DNA from: a virus
Lineage: Duplodnaviria > Heunggongvirae > Uroviricota > Caudoviricetes
Strand: one strand, 5' to 3'
DNA length: 57,565 nucleotides
IMG/VR virus record: IMGVR_UViG_3300025916_000008
Coordinates: 104,845-162,409 of that record
Below are positions 1 through 25,964 of this stretch, piece by piece; the stretch's first letter is position 1; each line of letters begins with the position of its first letter. The notes under the pieces are model-generated. The model searched no databases. It saw nothing but the letters and a program-made list of their open reading frames with translations, and was not told where the DNA came from. The position numbers were made by a program, and so were the translations under genes.

Positions 1-3000
1 GGAGCGCGGCCCCTCGTCGCCCCAGGGATTGGTCGGCATCCCCTTGCGGATCATGCTGCCCGGCTGGAGTCTCTTGCTGCGGCTGCCGTGGTAGAACGGG
101 CCGCTGACCTCCTGCTCGGCATCTACGTAGCCGCCTTCAGGCCCCTGGCCGTACGTCTGGTGCCGCCAGGTGAACGACGGGACGCGCGGCCCTTCCGCTG
201 TAGGCAGCCCGGCCGCCGACAGGCGGGTAATGTCCCCGCCGGGCGCAGGCAGCTCGACAGGGCGGCTGGCGGCGGGGTCAGTGAGCACGCGGTTGAACCT
301 GTGCTCGCGGATCTGCCGGGCCATCGGGGAGTCCTGGGGCATCTGGACGCGGCCAGGCCCGGTGAACTGGTGCTCGTCACGGTGCCACTGGCTCACCAGG
401 TCACGCGCCCCGTCCCAGCCGATCACCGGGTGAGTGGGCGAGTCAGTGAAGTGGCTGAACAGGTCCCCGCCAGCGGCGCGGCTACGCTCGTACTCGGCGT
501 GGTTCATCTCAGCGGCCTCGCGGTCGACGCGGGCCTGCTCACCGCTCTGGTGCGCCGGGTAGGTCTCGCCGCAGTTCCTGCACCGGGCGACGCTGCTCGG
601 TACCGGGGTGCCTTCCGGGTCGCCGAGGGTGAACCGGAGGGCTTCTGCCCCCTTCTCGCCGAACGCCGGCTCACCGCAGTGCGGGCACGCCGCTTCCGGG
701 TGGAGCGTGTAGTTCGACTGCTCCTCGTTCTCCTCAGGCGGCGGTCCCACGGCCGCCGTGTGCTCCGGGTGCTCGCCGAAGTCGTGCCTGCGCCAGGCCG
801 ATTCAGGCTCGTCGTGGAACTTCCACGACACCCCGGACACGTGCACGGGAGTCCCCTCGCGCAGCGGGATCTCCTCGTCGTCGTGGTAGCCCATGCCGAA
901 CACGTTCTGGTCGGCGAGGGTTTCCGGGTCGGTCTCGATGTCCTCGCGGTCGGGCTTGCGGGCGTGCACCACCACGTTCATGTCGTGGTCTCCGGGAGTG
1001 CGGTAACCGCCCGTGCCGACGTCGGCGTAGTGCCGGGCCTGCTGCTCGTTGCCGGTCCAGTGGGTGCCGAAGTCGCCGAGGTGGTGGAGCACGGTCCTGG
1101 CGGCGGACTCCCCGGCGGGAACGCCCCGGAGCATGTGCATGTGGTGGCGGCCCTGCGAGCCGTCGTCGTCGATCCGCATGCCCCGGTGCACCGTCGCCGG
1201 GATGCGCGGGTACTCCTCGTCCCAGTCGGTGTGCGTAGTCTCGTGCCGTTCCGATTCCTCGGGGTCGTCGTGGAACGTGGCCTCTCCCTCGTGCGCGGTG
1301 CAGGCGTGGCAGAGGTAGCCGCCGTGCCCCGGGTGACGGTAGCGGCCCTCGTCGTCCTGGTTCCCGTACTCGGGGTGGTCCCAGGTCTGGACCGGCGGGA
1401 CATACGCTTCCTCGGTCTCCTGCCGGTGCCGGACGCGCTTCAGCGGGTCCTCCGGGTTATGGCGGCCGGAATCCAGGGTGTTCAGCGTAGGGTCGGGCTG
1501 CGCGTGGAACAGCTTCTGCTGGAAGCCGGGGCGGACGGGGGAGCCCGGCTCGGCGAAGTGGGCGACCACCGGGGGACGGCGGCCGTCCAGGTACCCGCCC
1601 GGGAACCTGTCGGCATGGTCCTCTACCCCGGGCAGCTCCTCCTGCCCGGCCTGCGGCATCCGGCGGCGCTGCATCTCCGCCTCGTCGCGTCCCATGCACG
1701 GGTGGCCGGCCGCGTGATGCTGGGTGATCTCCGCCTGGCCTGGGTGGAAGACGACCGCCGACAGGGCGTGATGCTCTCCGGGGTCCTCGGCGTGATCGGC
1801 CTCAAGCTCGTTGCCGTACAGGATGCCGTCATGCCCCTGGGCCTGGAGGCGCTCGCGGAACCGGCGGGCGATGCCGTCCTTGTCCGGGTGGCTGGCCAGC
1901 CACTGGGCGCGCTTGCGCTGCCCTGGGTGAGAGGCGGCGAACAGCCCCTGGATGGGCCGCTCGTCCTTGCCGATCAGCGGCTGCTTGTCGTCATGGCGGA
2001 AGCGGGCTGTCAGCGGCCACTCCTCGCCGTCGGAAGTGGTGTCCGGGTCGTAGTCCTCGCTGTGCGGGTCCTCGTCCTCGTAGCCTTCCCGGAAGTGGTT
2101 CGCGATCCAGTTGCCGGCCCTGGCCTCGTGCTCGTACGCCTCGTTGTCCATGTCGTGCTCGGAGCCGTAGACCTTGGGGTTATGCAGGTGCAGCCGGGCG
2201 TGGACGACCGACTGCGGCTCGGCCTCCCGGTACCGGGTCTCCGGCTCGGGGCCGTACTCGCTGTCGTCCTCGCCGCTGGATGCCCCCTGCTGTGCGAAGT
2301 GCTCCGCCACCCCGTGGTCGGCGGCGAAGTGAGCGCCGAGGAAGGTGTTCCAGTGCGACAGGTGCCCGCGCAGCTCCTCGTCCTCGTGGTCATGGTGCTC
2401 CGGGTAGCTGAACCCGTGCATGAAGTCCTCGGGGCGGCCGTGCGTCCCGTGGAACCACTCGCCGCCCCCGGTGTGCGGGTTGGGCAGGCCCGGCTCGTAC
2501 CGGGCGGCTACAGCGCTCACAGCGCCTCCTTTGACGCTGCCCTCAAGGGCGCGCAGGCCGCGCACGTACGGCTCCAGGTGGTCGTTCCCGCCGCGTGCGT
2601 AGTCGTCCCTCACCCACTGGTAGGAGCCGGTGCCGGCCGGGTCGTCGCGCATGTACCGCGCCGCGCCGTGCCACGGCTCGTGGACGGCCACGATCTGGCG
2701 CGGCGGGACGTCGCCGCGCATGATGACGTGATGGTAGCCGGAAGCCCAGTCCTGGACCTTGGCGTCGTCCCAGGTACGGTCCCTGTTCATCGCCTGCCAG
2801 GGCTCCTCGGCCTGCCCGGAGATCTCGCCCGGGTGGGCGTGGAACTCGACGACGGCGCGGCCCTCGGAGTGGTTGGCCAGGATGTCGTCGGGCCGCTTGG
2901 TGGAGGCCCACACGCCGGCCGACGGGTCGTCCAGGTTGCGGTCGCCGGCGTCGCCGCGTGCGTACTCGCGCAGCAGGCCGCGCTGGCGGATCGACGGGAC

Positions 3001-3750
3001 GTTCTCCAGCGGGGTGTAGTGCCACAGCCGGACGTGGCCCCGGGGGATGGGGGCGGTGCCGGGGTCCGGGGGAAGCTCTTCGCGGGGCTCCGCTGCGGAT
3101 GCGGTCACCCCGGGCTGGCCGCTCGCCCGCTCCGCGCGCAGCCGCTGGCGGCGCTCGGCGTTCTGCCTGTTGTACTCCGCGTTCATCTCCGGCGGCTCGT
3201 GGTCGCCGACGGCGGCATCGGACTTCCCGCCGCGCGGCCCCTTGCCCCGGTGGTTCTTCCCGCCGCTGAAGTGCACCAGGGCGCGCCTGACCGGCGGCCC
3301 GTGGTAGGACCACTCGTTGATGGAGTTGCCGTCGGTGCGGAGCTGGTCGGCGCGGGCCTCGAACCTGACCACCGGCCAGTCGTCTTCCGGGTTCGACTGG
3401 CGGCCATGGTCACGGGCGTACTCGGCCGAGGAGGACACCCAGTCACCGGGGCTGACGCTCCGGTGCGGCGACGGCAGCGAGCGGTACATCGTCACGCGGC
3501 GCGACGGCCAGTCCCTCGACCGCCTCACCTTGTCGTAGGAGTCCCAGGACCCGGGGCCGTCGTTGGCGATGTACCAGTCCGGGTGCTCGTGGATGTCGGC
3601 CGGGTAGGTTCCCTTCGTGCCGACCTCGTGCATCGCCTCGCCGCTGTCGGCGTCCGGCCCCTGGTGCTGCCCCCGGTAGCCGGCGTCCTCTGCGGCAGCC
3701 TCGAAGTGCCCCAGGAGGTCCCCGGGAACATCGCCGCCGCTCGCCGTCAT
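1..3750 (-). CDS. Giant (>1250 aa, runs off the window's left end) polyvalent protein with about five tandem ADP-ribosyltransferase-like domains
   Basis: ATG at 3750, read in the same register as the antisense shadow ORF 88..3759; no stop codon seen to position 1, so it is absent from the track. Manual translation gives MYRSLP..PGDWVSSSAEYA..GNSINEW; LWHYTPLENVPSIRQRGL; WFHGT..GAHF..GHDGILY..VVFHPGQ; VHRGM..GTHWT..EEIPL; PFYHGS..LQPG (Arr-like). Confidence 0.8.
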   Translation of the reverse strand, partial: MTASGGDVPGDLLGHFEAAAEDAGYRGQHQGPDADSGEAMHEVGTKGTYPADIHEHPDWYIANDGPGSWDSYDKVRRSRDWPSRRVTMYRSLPSPHRSVSPGDWVSSSAEYARDHGRQSNPEDDWPVVRFEARADQLRTDGNSINEWSYHGPPVRRALVHFSGGKNHRGKGPRGGKSDAAVGDHEPPEMNAEYNRQNAERRQRLRAERASGQPGVTASAAEPREELPPDPGTAPIPRGHVRLWHYTPLENVPSIRQRGLLREYARGDAGDRNLDDPSAGVWASTKRPDDILANHSEGRAVVEFHAHPGEISGQAEEPWQAMNRDRTWDDAKVQDWASGYHHVIMRGDVPPRQIVAVHEPWHGAARYMRDDPAGTGSYQWVRDDYARGGNDHLEPYVRGLRALEGSVKGGAVSAVAARYEPGLPNPHTGGGEWFHGTHGRPEDFMHGFSYPEHHDHEDEELRGHLSHWNTFLGAHFAADHGVAEHFAQQGASSGEDDSEYGPEPETRYREAEPQSVVHARLHLHNPKVYGSEHDMDNEAYEHEARAGNWIANHFREGYEDEDPHSEDYDPDTTSDGEEWPLTARFRHDDKQPLIGKDERPIQGLFAASHPGQRKRAQWLASHPDKDGIARRFRERLQAQGHDGILYGNELEADHAEDPGEHHALSAVVFHPGQAEITQHHAAGHPCMGRDEAEMQRRRMPQAGQEELPGVEDHADRFPGGYLDGRRPPVVAHFAEPGSPVRPGFQQKLFHAQPDPTLNTLDSGRHNPEDPLKRVRHRQETEEAYVPPVQTWDHPEYGNQDDEGRYRHPGHGGYLCHACTAHEGEATFHDDPEESERHETTHTDWDEEYPRIPATVHRGMRIDDDGSQGRHHMHMLRGVPAGESAARTVLHHLGDFGTHWTGNEQQARHYADVGTGGYRTPGDHDMNVVVHARKPDREDIETDPETLADQNVFGMGYHDDEEIPLREGTPVHVSGVSWKFHDEPESAWRRHDFGEHPEHTAAVGPPPEENEEQSNYTLHPEAACPHCGEPAFGEKGAEALRFTLGDPEGTPVPSSVARCRNCGETYPAHQSGEQARVDREAAEMNHAEYERSRAAGGDLFSHFTDSPTHPVIGWDGARDLVSQWHRDEHQFTGPGRVQMPQDSPMARQIREHRFNRVLTDPAASRPVELPAPGGDITRLSAAGLPTAEGPRVPSFTWRHQTYGQGPEGGYVDAEQEVSGPFYHGSRSKRLQPGSMIRKGMPTNPWGDEGPRS

Positions 3751-3761
3751 GACAGCTAGGT

Positions 3762-3779
3762 TATCAATAAACCCCGTAT
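3762..3779 (-). promoter_or_regulatory. Conserved motif ATACGG-N6-TTGATA running into extended -10 (TGaTAACCT); probable leaderless promoter of the ART gene
   Basis: TAACCT at 3763..3758, 7 nt before ATG 3750, with no SD; the motif recurs upstream of other operons. Confidence 0.6.
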
Positions 3780-3809
3780 TCGGGGTAGATGCACGGTCCT
3801 GGAACACGA

Positions 3810-3838
3810 GAGCCTCCCATGTCTTCCACGGGAGGCTC
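3810..3838 (-). terminator. Stem-loop terminator ending the terminase operon
   Basis: gagcctccc / gggaggctc 9-bp inverted repeat just downstream of the small ORF's stop at 3862. Confidence 0.55.
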
Positions 3839-3861: not shown

Positions 3862-4080
3862 CTAAGAGGCTAGCAGCACGCCCTCGTCGTGATGGCCGGC
3901 ATCGGCGGTGAATCCCTGGCACGGGGTGCCGTCGGGGCCTGCGTGGCAGCCCGCCGCCCGGCACGGGGTCCTGCCGTTGCTGTGCATGGTCAGGGGGTGA
4001 TTGCACGTGGCGCAGCCGGCGGCGGCGGTGCTCACCACGAACCCCCCGGTCTTCACCGGCCTGTCGTCGTTCCTGCTCAT
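3862..4080 (-). CDS. Small Cys/His-rich putative Zn-binding protein
   Basis: MSRNDD..CATCNHPLTMH..CRAAGC..C; SD AAGGGAG 6 nt before ATG 4080. Confidence 0.6.
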   Translation of the reverse strand: MSRNDDRPVKTGGFVVSTAAAGCATCNHPLTMHSNGRTPCRAAGCHAGPDGTPCQGFTADAGHHDEGVLLAS

Positions 4081-4125
4081 GGGCATCTCCCTTCTGTTCC
4101 AGGGTAAAGCGGAGACGATCTTGTG

Positions 4126-6249
4126 TCACGAGCGGTGCCTGCGCATCGATCCCATTCCCGCCCCGTAACGTCCCTGCTGCGCCAGCCGCCCCGTGCGGGG
4201 CATCATCCCGGGGCGCATGCCACGGGCCAGCGAGCCCCGCCCGGTGGCCGACCCCAGCTCGGAGGCCAGCGGGTTCATCGTGTCGGGGGAGAAGCGGTCG
4301 AGGGCGTCGTGGCCGCCCGGCTGGCTCATGTGCGGTCGCTGGTTGCGCAGGTCCTTCGCCAGGTAGGCCTTGAGCTGCTCGCCGAGCAGCCGGGCGGTGA
4401 CGATCGCCGCCGTGTCGGCGATGTCCTTGGTCTGCACCGGGCCGGACGACGGCGGCAGCACTTTCTGCACGCCCTCCGGCTTCTGGAGGAAGCGCAGCTC
4501 ATCCTTCAGCTCCGCGTGCGGCGGGCAGTGAACGAACCCCATGTTCAAGGCCGTCTTGAACGTCTCGTAAGTGGTCCAGTTGAGCGGGCCGGTGGCCGTC
4601 CTCTCGTACACCATGATGTTCTTCTGGAGGTGGGCGGCCCGGACCATCTTCTGGAGCGCCTGCACCGAGGCGATCGAGTTCCACTGGTCAAAGGTGAGTT
4701 CATCCGGCTGGAATTTCATCACCACGTTGTCGAAGATCCAGTCGCGGATCTCGTCGTAGTCCAGGATGTGGTCCTCGAAGTCGGCCGGGTCCCAGAAGTG
4801 CACCAGGTCGAAGACCACGTGGTTCAGCCCGTCCGGCCCCGGCTCGCAGTGCGCCACCGAGAACCCGAAGCGGCAGTTCACCGAGGCCGGGTCACCGTGC
4901 GCGGTGTAGTCCAGGTACAGCGGGCCGCGCCCCTGCATCGTCAGCTCCGGTCGGCCGTACTTCGGGTCGCGCTCCAGCCAGGGGGCGAACATCTCGTCGA
5001 TCTTCGCGGTGTTCAGGTAGGCGTCCAGGGCGGTCGCCCAGTCTGACCGGCGCTCCACTCGGAACGTGTCGGGGTTGGCCTTCTCCTCGCGGGCCATCTC
5101 CTCGTCGTACGCCTGGATCGCGCCCTTCAGCGCCTTCAGCAGCGGCAGGTTCTCCGGGTCGTACTCCCCCAGGTCCCCGGTGAAGCCGGGCGGGAACAGC
5201 GGCAGCAGGTGCGCCCGCTCCCAGTCCTCGTAAACCGCCCAGGACTCAAGCTGGACCATCAATTTGGTGGGGAACGCGGGCATTGTCTCGCCCGGCTCAG
5301 GGGCCGGCTCGCGGGTCAGCGACAGCTCCCACAAGTGATAGAACTCGCCGATCATCTCCCAGGTGCTGGAGGGCAGCACCACAAAGCCGTCGGTGCCGAA
5401 CTGGTCGAGCGACGGCTTGGCGGCCGAGTAGACCACCCCGAACTCCCTGGTCACGCCGGCGTTCTTGACGTGGGCAGCCTCATCGAAGCCCAGGATGCAG
5501 CCGGCCGGGCCACGGGGGGCCAGCGGCGTCGACTCGCGGGGGATGATCCGGAAGGTGGCCATGTCGCGGGAGGAGGCGATCCCCCTCGCGGCGAGCTTCC
5601 GCATCCGCACGAAGTCGTAGGGGGCGTAGACGGTCAGGCTCTCGGCCAGCGCCTCGCTGATGTACTCGGTGAAGCAGGGGGCGGTGGTGATCACCGAGTA
5701 CAGGTCGCCCCAGAGGTTCTCCTTGGCCTGCTCTTTCTTGCCCGCGAAGACGGCGCACGCGAGGGGCTTGTTCTCGTCGATGCCGTAGAACTCCTGGGGG
5801 TTCCCCTTGCTCATGTAGTTCCACAGCACGTAGGCCATGCACAGCGCGGCGATGTAGCCCTTCCCCGCGCGGCGGCCCAGGGCGATGATGAACTCGGGGA
5901 ACCACTTGTAGCCGCGCTTCTTCAGGTAGGCGATCCGCTCGTACAGGTCCGGCTGGATGCCCTTGGTCTGCGCCGAGAACTTGTTGTCCGCCGCGTCCGG
6001 GTTGGTGTCCCGGAACCGCTGCTGCCACTCGGCGATCACCTGCCGGTCGTAGGCGGTGAACAGGTCGTCGCGCAGGAAGACGACCTTGATCAGGGTCGCC
6101 TGGCGGGGGTACAGGTTCGGCTTGCCGAGCCAGTCCTCGCCGATGATGAACGTGATCGGGTCGGGGACCGGCGGCCCGTCGAACCAGGCGAGCACGTCCA
6201 GCGGCCCGGCCTGCTGGGTCTCAGGTGCCTGCCACCTGCTGATCGCCAT
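4126..6249 (-). CDS. terL: Terminase large subunit
   Basis: Walker A-like ALGRRAGKG, Walker B ILGFDEAAH, RNase H-like nuclease motifs AHGDPA, TFDQWNS, KDIADT; SD GGGAGG. Confidence 0.9.
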   Translation of the reverse strand: MAISRWQAPETQQAGPLDVLAWFDGPPVPDPITFIIGEDWLGKPNLYPRQATLIKVVFLRDDLFTAYDRQVIAEWQQRFRDTNPDAADNKFSAQTKGIQPDLYERIAYLKKRGYKWFPEFIIALGRRAGKGYIAALCMAYVLWNYMSKGNPQEFYGIDENKPLACAVFAGKKEQAKENLWGDLYSVITTAPCFTEYISEALAESLTVYAPYDFVRMRKLAARGIASSRDMATFRIIPRESTPLAPRGPAGCILGFDEAAHVKNAGVTREFGVVYSAAKPSLDQFGTDGFVVLPSSTWEMIGEFYHLWELSLTREPAPEPGETMPAFPTKLMVQLESWAVYEDWERAHLLPLFPPGFTGDLGEYDPENLPLLKALKGAIQAYDEEMAREEKANPDTFRVERRSDWATALDAYLNTAKIDEMFAPWLERDPKYGRPELTMQGRGPLYLDYTAHGDPASVNCRFGFSVAHCEPGPDGLNHVVFDLVHFWDPADFEDHILDYDEIRDWIFDNVVMKFQPDELTFDQWNSIASVQALQKMVRAAHLQKNIMVYERTATGPLNWTTYETFKTALNMGFVHCPPHAELKDELRFLQKPEGVQKVLPPSSGPVQTKDIADTAAIVTARLLGEQLKAYLAKDLRNQRPHMSQPGGHDALDRFSPDTMNPLASELGSATGRGSLARGMRPGMMPRTGRLAQQGRYGAGMGSMRRHRS

Positions 6250-24287: not shown

Positions 24288-25964
24288 CTACGACGCGGCT
24301 GCGGTGGTGTCCCAGTTCCTCTCGCCCTGGCGCGGGTTGAGGTGCTGCTCGCGCTCCTGGGCGTGCCGGGCCTTGAAGACCTCGAACGGGGTCTTGGCGG
24401 CGTCCTCCAGGCCGGCCGCGACCGGGATCAGGTCGCGCACGGCGTCCTTCACGGCGGCGTGGACCGGCTGGTCGTCCAGCTTCTCGGCGAGCCTGGTCAG
24501 CCCGTCCTTGACGGCGGTCATGATGTCGGGAAGGTGCTCAAGCATCGGGTCGACCCCGCCGTCCCCCATGACCGACGAGGGCTGGAAGCTGGAGAACAGG
24601 TGGCTGATCGCCTCGGTGGCGGCGTTGAGGGATGCGGGTGCTGCTGCCATGTCTGGTGTTCCTCCGGTGAATGTTGGCTGGTGCCGTGGGGGCACCGGGC
24701 CGGCGGAAGCCGGCCTCCTGAATGTCGCCGCAGCGCGAGGCGTCCGGTCCGCGAAGGGATCGGTCGGCGGCCTCATCGTGCTGGCAGGCGCTGGAGCCGG
24801 GGCGGCCGGAGCCGGTACCCGTCTCCTGTTTCTTGACAACCTTATCAAGAAACCCCGCATTGCGCGTCCTCTCCTGCGCATCCGGATACGAAGGCGCAGG
24901 AGCCGCATCTTCCTGGGCCGCACGGCCCTGCGCGTCTTGCGGGCCACCCGCCACCGGCCGTACCGGCGGACGTGGTGGAGAATCCACGGCCGGGAGAACC
25001 GCCGCAGCCGGTGCGGTCGCAGCGGCCTCGGCGCTCCCCGGCGGCGGCGCGGCCAGCGGAGCCGCGAGCCGCGTACCCGGACCCTCGGGGGTGCCCCGGC
25101 GCGGCGGCTCCGGCGGCGGGTGCCGCGCGGGGACGCGGCGCGGTGCCAGGGACGCCACCAGCTACGCCTGGGAGCGCCGTGCGGCGCGTGGCCGCCGTGC
25201 GGGGCCGACGGACGGGGAGACCGCCAGGACGGCGGCCGGAGCCGGGGCGGGACGAGCCTGCGCCAGCCCCGGGCAGCGCGCGGCGGCGTGTAGACTCCGC
25301 CGCGCGGCCGGGCGTGACGACCGGGACGGGGCAGCGCGCCGCCAGGGGCACGCGGGGTCCTGGTGCGGGGCGAGCCGAAGCGCGGGCTCCCTGTCCGCCC
25401 GGCACGGCCGGGACGGGGGAAGGACCCTCCCGCGCGGCGGCTGCCGCGCGAGCCGCCGGGGCTCCCGCCACGGCGGCGGAACGGCAGCCCGCGCCCCCCG
25501 GCGGCACGTCCCGCCTTAGGAAGGCCCGGGGAGCGCATCCGGGAGGCGGGCCTCAGGCCGCGCAGCGGGCCGCCGAGGGGACCACGGCGTGCCCCGCCGC
25601 CGATCCGCATGCCCCGGGGAAGGCGGCCCATGCCGCGACCCCCGGGGAGGCCTCGCGGCAGGCGGCCGGGGCGCATGCCGCGCAGGCCCGGGGGAAGGCC
25701 ACGGAGCCCCGGCGGGAGGCCTGGTCCCCGGCGACGGCCGCTGATGCGCCGCGCCGCCAGGAACACGACAGCCCCGACGCCGATGACGGCGGCGAGGGTG
25801 CCGGTGCTCCTCCAGCCGATGACGTGGCCGAGGCCGCCGATGACGGCGGCGAGGGCGAAGACCGCGATCCCGGCTCGCCTCACGAGAGGGAGCCGGGACC
25901 CGGAGCCGCCTCCTCCCCCGCGCGGCGGCGGGGGAGGAGGAAACGGCGGGAACGGGCTAGCCAT
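24288..25964 (-). CDS. Membrane protein (2 N-terminal TM helices, long Arg/Gly/Pro-rich region) with a C-terminal plasmid-spread-type domain that can be translated separately from ATG 24650
   Basis: TM segments GIAVFALAAVIGGLGHVIG and TLAAVIGVGAVVFLAA; coupled to the upstream stop; internal SD GGAGGA before in-frame ATG 24650. Confidence 0.6.
   Translation of the reverse strand: MASPFPPFPPPPPPRGGGGGSGSRLPLVRRAGIAVFALAAVIGGLGHVIGWRSTGTLAAVIGVGAVVFLAARRISGRRRGPGLPPGLRGLPPGLRGMRPGRLPRGLPGGRGMGRLPRGMRIGGGARRGPLGGPLRGLRPASRMRSPGLPKAGRAAGGRGLPFRRRGGSPGGSRGSRRAGGSFPRPGRAGRTGSPRFGSPRTRTPRAPGGALPRPGRHARPRGGVYTPPRAARGWRRLVPPRLRPPSWRSPRPSAPHGGHAPHGAPRRSWWRPWHRAASPRGTRRRSRRAGAPPRVRVRGSRLRWPRRRRGAPRPLRPHRLRRFSRPWILHHVRRYGRWRVARKTRRAVRPRKMRLLRLRIRMRRRGRAMRGFLIRLSRNRRRVPAPAAPAPAPASTMRPPTDPFADRTPRAAATFRRPASAGPVPPRHQPTFTGGTPDMAAAPASLNAATEAISHLFSSFQPSSVMGDGGVDPMLEHLPDIMTAVKDGLTRLAEKLDDQPVHAAVKDAVRDLIPVAAGLEDAAKTPFEVFKARHAQEREQHLNPRQGERNWDTTAAAS
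24843..24860 (-). promoter_or_regulatory. Intragenic variant motif ATGCGG-N6-TTGATA with -10 TAAGGT
   Basis: AT-rich patch in an otherwise extremely GC-rich ORF, about 190 nt upstream of internal ATG 24650. Confidence 0.5.

Follow-up and report, generated by a model that had tools for sequence, protein, structure and literature searches.

A giant gene behind the terminase gene of a large actinobacterial phage probably encodes a polyvalent effector with five ADP-ribosyltransferase-type modules

ADP-ribosyltransferases (ARTs) are the commonest modifying domains of phage polyvalent proteins, with up to 12 per protein (Iyer et al. 2017, PMC5512222). The same group has interpreted ARTs near terminase or portal genes as head cargo and reports Arr-family genes in actinophages (PMC9503650). 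The gene described here lies at the left edge of a stretch of 57,565 nucleotides (nt), referred to as the window, which is the final 57.6 kb (104,845-162,409) of the 162,409-bp IMG/VR phage record IMGVR_UViG_3300025916_000008 and has a guanine-plus-cytosine (GC) content of ~70%. The gene (minus strand, window 1..3750; record C1:102946-108594) has the first 1250 of its 1882 codons in the window. With a probability of about 0.78, it encodes, for a large uncultured actinobacterial phage, a polyvalent effector in which independently shuffled modules, ART-type and other, are joined in one chain. Five of the modules match the ART superfamily by predicted fold, profile, or both. GenBank contained no near-identical phage record.

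A scan for open reading frames (ORFs) found the minus strand without a stop codon from window position 3807 to the left edge, and the full record placed the stop 1899 nt beyond that edge. The minus frame is coding, as its GC content at the three codon positions (0.75/0.47/0.93) and its homologues indicate, and it is complete in the record. Counted from the first GTG (window 3807), the frame has 1901 codons in the full record; residue numbers used here (protein P0003) start at that codon, so that residue n begins at window position 3807-3(n-1). The true start is most likely the ATG at window position 3750, which gives 1882 amino acids (aa), because a copy of a promoter-like motif sits 7 nt upstream. 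GTG 3807 was dropped as the start in favor of this ATG, the stretch between the two being occupied by the promoter-like motif and a hairpin. An earlier, sequence-only reading of this DNA had described an ORF cut by the window edge, had taken 3750, exactly the ATG chosen here, as its right-hand coordinate, and had proposed extending the contig; tracing the frame through the full record bore this out. The same reading had noted linkers rich in His, Asp, and Glu, and the whole protein does contain 8.5% His and 17.8% Asp plus Glu.

The promoter-like element (GAATACGGGGTTTATTGATAACCT; window 3761..3784, minus strand) is a diverged copy of a motif repeated in the genome (AATACAGCTTTTCTTGATAAnnT), of which there are about 20 copies, several of the others having an ATG 6 to 7 nt downstream. 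The gene had been credited with its own promoter, and a promoter-like element is indeed what precedes it. The ATG lies only 7 nt past this element, and the transcript of the giant gene is therefore probably leaderless. The hairpin, read from the sequence (window 3810..3838, minus strand), has a perfect 9-bp stem (GAGCCTCCC / GGGAGGCTC) and an 11-nt loop and separates the small ORF upstream from the promoter-like element.

Sequence searches of the whole giant protein against Pfam, NCBIfam, and PDB returned almost nothing, and module alignments and two AlphaFold models were therefore built. The models covered residues 36-425 and 430-1025, with predicted local distance difference test (pLDDT) values of 86.7 and 80.8, respectively. 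A word-indexed search recovered 30 giant homologues of 1363-3296 aa, with expect (E) values down to 0, and a separate exhaustive search recovered 2224 database representatives at E ≤ 1e-3. Precomputed Pfam domains of the 30 giant homologues include ParBc, Arr-ms, GNAT, NUDIX, and 2H. Module borders were set by profile work on 167 retrieved proteins, and eleven modules were delimited in the giant protein. Modules A to E, which are the ART-like types, and the C-terminal module T vary in order and copy number among the 167 proteins, which include giants of related uncultured phages, with a maximum of 13 ART-like modules in one protein (3483 aa). No module of the family is commoner than D (221 copies, spread over 105 of the retrieved proteins), C is followed by D in 30 proteins, and all five ART-like types occur together in only 6 of the 167. 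These five mobile modules, delimited independently, coincide with the five blocks marked by the sequence-only reading, and the motifs it quoted are all present and fall at conserved positions of their modules.

The split beta-sheet core of the ART fold was recovered in the modelled segments. Family-named protein-language-model look-alikes of modules A, B, and D, which serve as leads only, all belonged to ART-clan families. Candidates for the catalytic H-Y-E or R-S-E residues of strands 1, 2, and 5 are R109, S125-127, and E165 in module A, H263 in B, H453, H493, and E667 in C, R875, T918, and E979 in D, and H1240 in E. The ART reading is strongly supported for modules B, C, and E and moderately supported for A and D. 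The expectation that the segments would model as ART folds was upheld, with His or Arg and Glu candidates at conserved positions. The claim of five different domains stood for the number of ART-type modules and needed adjustment for their diversity: they represent four to five families, C and D being probable distant relatives.

Module B (residues 243-402; window 2602..3081, minus strand) has a DarT/Tpt1-like ART fold. Its top-ranking fold matches were KptA (6.9), the Rhs ART toxin TreX (6.6), EcPltA (6.0), DarT (5.8), and pertussis toxin (5.8), and Foldseek matched it to Tpt1 (E 5e-3; probability 1.0). The clusters matching its fold were DUF4433/DarT in AFDB and DarT, PARP, and Tpt1 in the Atlas. 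Conserved positions comprise H263-Y-T265 on strand 1, GVWAST (298-303), and HEPWH (376-380). Among B homologues, 23 match DUF7002 (PF22531; best E 8.6e-5) and 6 match DarT (PF14487; best E 0.004), all below the cut-offs, and the copy studied here matches DUF7002 with an E value of 0.093.

Module C (residues 440-728; window 1624..2508, minus strand) is PARP/diphtheria-toxin-like. Its invariant positions are H453-G454 (WFHGT, on the first strand), G491 and H493 (LGAHF), and Y664-G-N666-E667-x-E669, and the last of these motifs can be read as similar to the Y-N-E of PARPs. In the ESM Atlas, a cluster of ART-PolyVal proteins matches the module with a template modeling (TM) score of 0.64, and 12 of 35 C homologues (34-82% identity) match Pfam ART-PolyVal (PF18760; best E 3.9e-8). 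On these grounds, module C is probably a divergent ART-PolyVal; its insert is long, disordered, and acidic/His-rich. This copy itself had no PF18760 match at E ≤ 1. Among solved structures, module C was matched best by residues 1418-1607 of chain B of PDB entry 9k3a, part of an internal protein of the cyanophage A4 pre-ejectosome. The paper on that structure makes no mention of ADP-ribosyltransferase, so the matched segment of this ejection protein may be ART-like without having been noted as such.

Module E (residues 1226-1330) is an Arr-family ART cut by the window edge; residues 1226-1269 are encoded in the window (1..132, minus strand) and the remaining 183 nt lie past the edge. It carries the motif FYHGS, in which His19 of Arr-ms is kept as H1240. 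The module E profile matched solved Arr structures (2HW2, 9IAF) over the whole length with an E value of 2.3e-15, which bears out the Arr-like call made for the last block from its letters. The score of this copy against Arr-ms (PF12120; E 1.4e-3, 19.2 bits) falls below the curated cut-off of 25, and there was no NCBIfam match (NF033144). Module E is accordingly placed as an Arr homologue and not as an equivalog, since its Pfam score is below the cut-off, yet its own profile matches solved Arr.

Modules A and D are without a Pfam family, and profile searches of their alignments, and of that of module T, against PDB and Pfam found no family. Module A (residues 39-186; window 3250..3693, minus strand) is small and ART-like, with invariant R109 (YRSLP), G121 and W123 (GDWVSSS), E165, and Y168 (NEWSY). 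It matches PHROG 2579, named "ParB C-terminal domain" (E 4e-29). It is read as a minimal module resembling the arginine-serine-glutamate (R-S-E) type, and module D (residues 860-1022; window 742..1230, minus strand) is likewise read as R-S-E-like. In D, the nearly invariant positions over 47 diverged copies are H874-R875-G876 (HRG), G-x-H-W-[ST] (GTHWT; G914 and W917), V-x-H-A (VVVHA, 944-948), and E-x-P (E979-I-P981). Fold comparison of D gave weak rows for pertussis toxin and KptA. With clean profiles, 38 columns of D align with the first half of C (E 5e-5); an iterated-profile link between the two (E 1.4e-14) is possibly inflated, C sequences having leaked into the D profile. The probable kinship of C and D at the profile level is the reason for counting the array as four to five ART families.

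Beyond the ART-like modules and T, the protein contains a zinc ribbon and three modules of unassigned fold with a His-rich repeated motif. Module X (residues 745-860; window 1228..1575, minus strand), a linker module found after C and before D in many relatives, contains a small Cys/His knuckle (YLCHACTAHEG; treble-clef match, E 0.31). Module Z (residues 1026-1108; window 484..732, minus strand) is the zinc ribbon, with two CxxC pairs, and is weakly Lar-like (PF14354; E 0.012-0.028, below threshold). Module Y (residues 1112-1204; window 196..474, minus strand) is conserved in 8 relatives and is without a fold assignment. Modules H (residues 1346-1639) and I (residues 1641-1780) are encoded beyond the left edge. 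Three copies of the motif E-[ERH]-H-[LI]-x3-H-G are distributed over H and I (residues 1488-1496, 1562-1570, and 1735-1743).

The modules are punctuated by a short motif, [VILA][VILAFG][AS]HF, mostly VVAHF with acidic residues after it. It occurs 158 times in the 167 proteins, compared with 4.35 times in shuffles. About 20 of the 158 occurrences are the internal LGAHF of module C, and most others lie at module boundaries; in a close homologue the motif also stands directly behind the start codon. In the giant protein, sites encoded in the window are at residues 31-35, 176-180, 747-751, and 1116-1120 (window 3703-3717, 3268-3282, 1555-1569, and 448-462, minus strand), and two more lie to its left (residues 1335-1339 and 1785-1789). 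The motif stretch has pLDDT values below 50 in the model, as in a low-confidence, disordered linker. The motif may be a cleavage or recognition signal, or it may mark a recombination junction; at three sites its DNA hardly differs, but given the codon bias little variation would be expected, and this likeness fits selection on the peptide as well as a recombination junction.

Module T (residues 1795-1896, left of the window) is helical, ends in LPPEASWE-xPG, is without a known family, and forms the extreme C-terminus in all 36 proteins that carry it. A paralogue of T is encoded elsewhere in the window as a 120-aa gene (window 24288..24650, minus strand), and its product is the predicted partner of T. 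Orthologues of the paralogue in relatives are 114-118 aa long (66-76% identity), one of them on a contig with a T-bearing giant gene. Complex prediction for T and the 120-aa protein scored 0.85, against 0.00 for the best of three controls, a mark reached by 58 of 80 solved complexes and by 2 of 110 mismatched pairs; contact agreement between runs was at least 78%, and the pLDDT of the partner was at least 77. Module T is thus predicted from the models to bind its 120-aa paralogue. Upstream of the 120-aa gene (window 24651-25964, minus strand), the frame remains open and would encode two hydrophobic helices followed by ~350 low-complexity residues rich in Arg, Pro, and Gly. A reading of the extended frame as a 558-aa membrane protein ending in the T-like paralogue was rejected: its homologues are all 114-120 aa, none is 336-1070 aa, and no homologues as long as the extended frame were found. 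It is quite unlikely that the family handles its effector arrays by a system of its own, in which the VVAHF-acidic peptide ahead of every module, the first one too, would be a cleavage or recognition signal allowing the chain to be cut into ~10 separate enzymes, a heterodimer of T and the 120-aa protein would dock the chain to its loading or delivery machinery, and A and D would constitute two new, very abundant ART families of actinophages.

The giant gene follows terL, as had been stated from the sequence (minus strand, window 4126..6249; 707 aa; phrog_2 match, E 1.5e-11). The terL product shares 30-34% identity with the terminases of large myophages of Rhodococcus, Gordonia, and Mycobacterium (cluster C). 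The stretch from the terL stop (window 4126) to the giant gene contains the hairpin, the promoter-like element, and a small Cys-rich ORF of 74 aa with a ribosome binding site (window 3862..4086, minus strand). The product of the 74-aa ORF is probably metal binding, and a relative carries a 99-aa ORF at the equivalent position. The 1882-aa gene overlaps by 28 nt with the next gene on its strand, a second giant of 1825 codons, whose product has an Arr-ms match and 2H matches (two 2H phosphoesterases). The contig of a relative shows the order HNH, terL-sized gene, small ORF, giant gene, giant gene, and later a uracil-DNA glycosylase gene, so that a giant pair after terL is an arrangement common to the two phages. 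Here too, a gene of the uracil-DNA glycosylase superfamily (record C1:95146-95718, minus strand; PF03167, E 7.5e-28) lies downstream of both giants. Also downstream, a 902-aa ORF without a known family (record C1:90074-92782, minus strand) has a copy of the His-rich module I at its end (E 1.7e-14); its opening motif, PPGHF, is the one with which module H of the giant protein begins. The idea that this ORF is a portal of the RedWattleHog type was rejected, and the proteins that follow terL in RedWattleHog are unrelated to the giant protein.

Most modules would use nicotinamide adenine dinucleotide (NAD+) to ADP-ribosylate several different host targets. By analogy, modules A, C, and D would act on proteins and module B on nucleic acid, while E would perhaps modify a small molecule. 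Action would come early in infection and would serve host take-over or the disarming of defenses. The VVAHF-acidic linkers would be sites at which the chain is cut or recognized, and the T module would dock the chain to its small phage-encoded partner. T4 Alt and the polyvalent-protein model provide analogies by which the protein could plausibly be delivered within the virion, as the sequence-only reading had suggested.

A number of observations weigh against all or part of this picture. No module of the giant protein reaches the Pfam gathering threshold, and no solved structure matches by sequence, module E excepted. The catalytic candidates were placed by sequence register and predicted strand order, not by geometry. 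Within this genome, the VVAHF motif is confined to the giant protein; it is for this reason not tied to the capsid protease, and its reading as a capsid-protease site was not supported. The complex predicted for T and the 120-aa protein may reflect a shared dimerizing fold of helical domains, because the two are paralogues. The terL gene and the giant genes sit amid replication and repair genes (DNA polymerase III alpha, primase, resolvase), and because the block lies there, packaging has no support from the context beyond adjacency to terL. The family of promoter-like motifs to which that of the giant gene belongs precedes many small genes, which would also fit early intracellular expression.

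It is a tenable, though less likely, possibility that an early, host-type promoter of its own drives production of the protein within infected cells and that it acts there, in host take-over or counter-defense, never being packaged or injected. The gene has its own copy of the motif and a leaderless ATG, it shares the replication and repair block with terL and the second giant gene, and no MuF, portal, or capsid-protease fusion was detected in the protein. Delivery in the virion is favored by the head-cargo reading of ARTs near terminase genes and by terL adjacency, and the polyvalent effector reading itself stands under either mode of deployment.

Several of the ART-like modules could instead be nonenzymatic, with degenerate folds that bind NAD+, ADP-ribose, or ADP-ribosylated targets and serve as scaffolds or as decoys or sponges against NAD-based defense; this is rather unlikely. 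It draws on module E, in which, as in its nearest relatives, Gly replaces Arr Asp84 and His1273 replaces Tyr49, two residues that reportedly have roles in Arr. With these substitutions, E may be inactive or may work differently; about half of the E subfamily, however, retains Asp at the Asp84 position. In fold, module A is closest to CNFy D4, an ART-like domain in which no activity was detected (PMC7883292), and the absence of any module above a curated family threshold points the same way. Set against this, modules A, C, and D keep the His or Arg and the Glu invariant, or nearly so, over dozens of diverged copies, which is the pattern expected of an active site.

It is also doubtful that the array acts mainly on nucleic acids. 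Together with the two 2H phosphoesterases of the neighboring protein, it would then ADP-ribosylate host DNA or RNA or carry out repair (Tpt1-type removal of 2'-phosphate), rather than reprogram RNA polymerase as T4 Alt and Mod do. Module C, however, is closest to the protein-modifying PARP/diphtheria-type ARTs and ART-PolyVal, and D is closest to pertussis-type toxins, although fold alone does not fix the substrate. Finally, it is scarcely credible that the long frame is a high-GC by-product or that the plus-strand frame 1..3759 is the real gene: both strands are open across the first 3.7 kb of this 70% GC DNA, but the minus frame has GC values of 0.93 and 0.47 at the third and second codon positions and encodes a protein with thousands of homologues that folds at pLDDT values of 81-87, whereas the plus-strand translation is rich in Val, Ala, Leu, Arg, and Gly, as is typical of antisense frames in GC-rich DNA, and was rejected on its composition and on the homologues.

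Under the polyvalent effector reading, one phage chain combines five ART-type modules of four to five families, and the adjoining giant gene holds more. Two module types, A and D, are without a curated family yet very common in uncultured soil phages, and defining them would improve the annotation of actinophages. Should the modules prove active, each would be a candidate tool or probe with its own host target of ADP-ribosylation in Streptomyces-like bacteria. The processing and delivery of polyvalent proteins have so far been addressed by inference alone, and the linker motif and module T, as a putative docking module, would offer a handle on them.

Compared with individual ART families, the modules combine shared and divergent features. 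Module C keeps the strand-1 His of ART-PolyVal (PF18760; Tox-ART-HYD2 clade), a cluster of which matches its fold, and differs in an acidic/His-rich insert of ~100 residues and in a predicted site of the form H...H/F...E (Y-G-N-E), compared with the H-Y-D of the family. Module E keeps the H-G-[ST] motif and the VYEVEPTG core of Arr (PF12120; PDB 2HW2); unlike Arr, it is embedded in a giant protein, scores 19.2 bits against 25, and has Gly for Asp84 and His for Tyr49. Module B has its best fold matches in DarT and Tpt1 (KptA) and shares H-x-T on strand 1 with them, whereas this copy of B is without a significant sequence match, a DarG-like partner, or an identifiable Tpt1 Arg tetrad. Modules A and D are much smaller than T4 Alt/ModA/ModB and the pertussis/cholera-type R-S-E ARTs, and they do not conserve the first Glu/Gln of the classic [QE]-x-E. 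No resemblance to T4 Alt/ModA/ModB, which the sequence-only reading had cited among known ART folds, was found: Pfam, PHROG, and PDB searches with the giant protein and the module alignments returned no Alt/VIP2-type families.

The comparison with polyvalent proteins, in contrast, was correct, and the architecture matches the class of Iyer et al. 2017. Polyvalent proteins carry 2 to 15 or more distinct effector domains, and at least 11 modules, five of them ART-like, were found here; their domains recombine freely, and orders and copy numbers are shuffled across the 167 proteins. As in that class, a giant phage polypeptide consists of shuffled effector modules in which ARTs are dominant and multicopy, the gene lies beside a packaging gene, and relatives add ParB, GNAT, NUDIX, and 2H modules. 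Unlike known polyvalent proteins, the giant protein is itself without a MuF, zincin, or ArdC hub domain, mixes four to five ART families rather than repeating ART-PolyVal, includes two module types (A and D) without a Pfam model, and has VVAHF-acidic punctuation and a helical C-terminal module for which a small partner is predicted. The giant protein is thus a new and unusually diverse example of the described polyvalent class and not a new kind of system.

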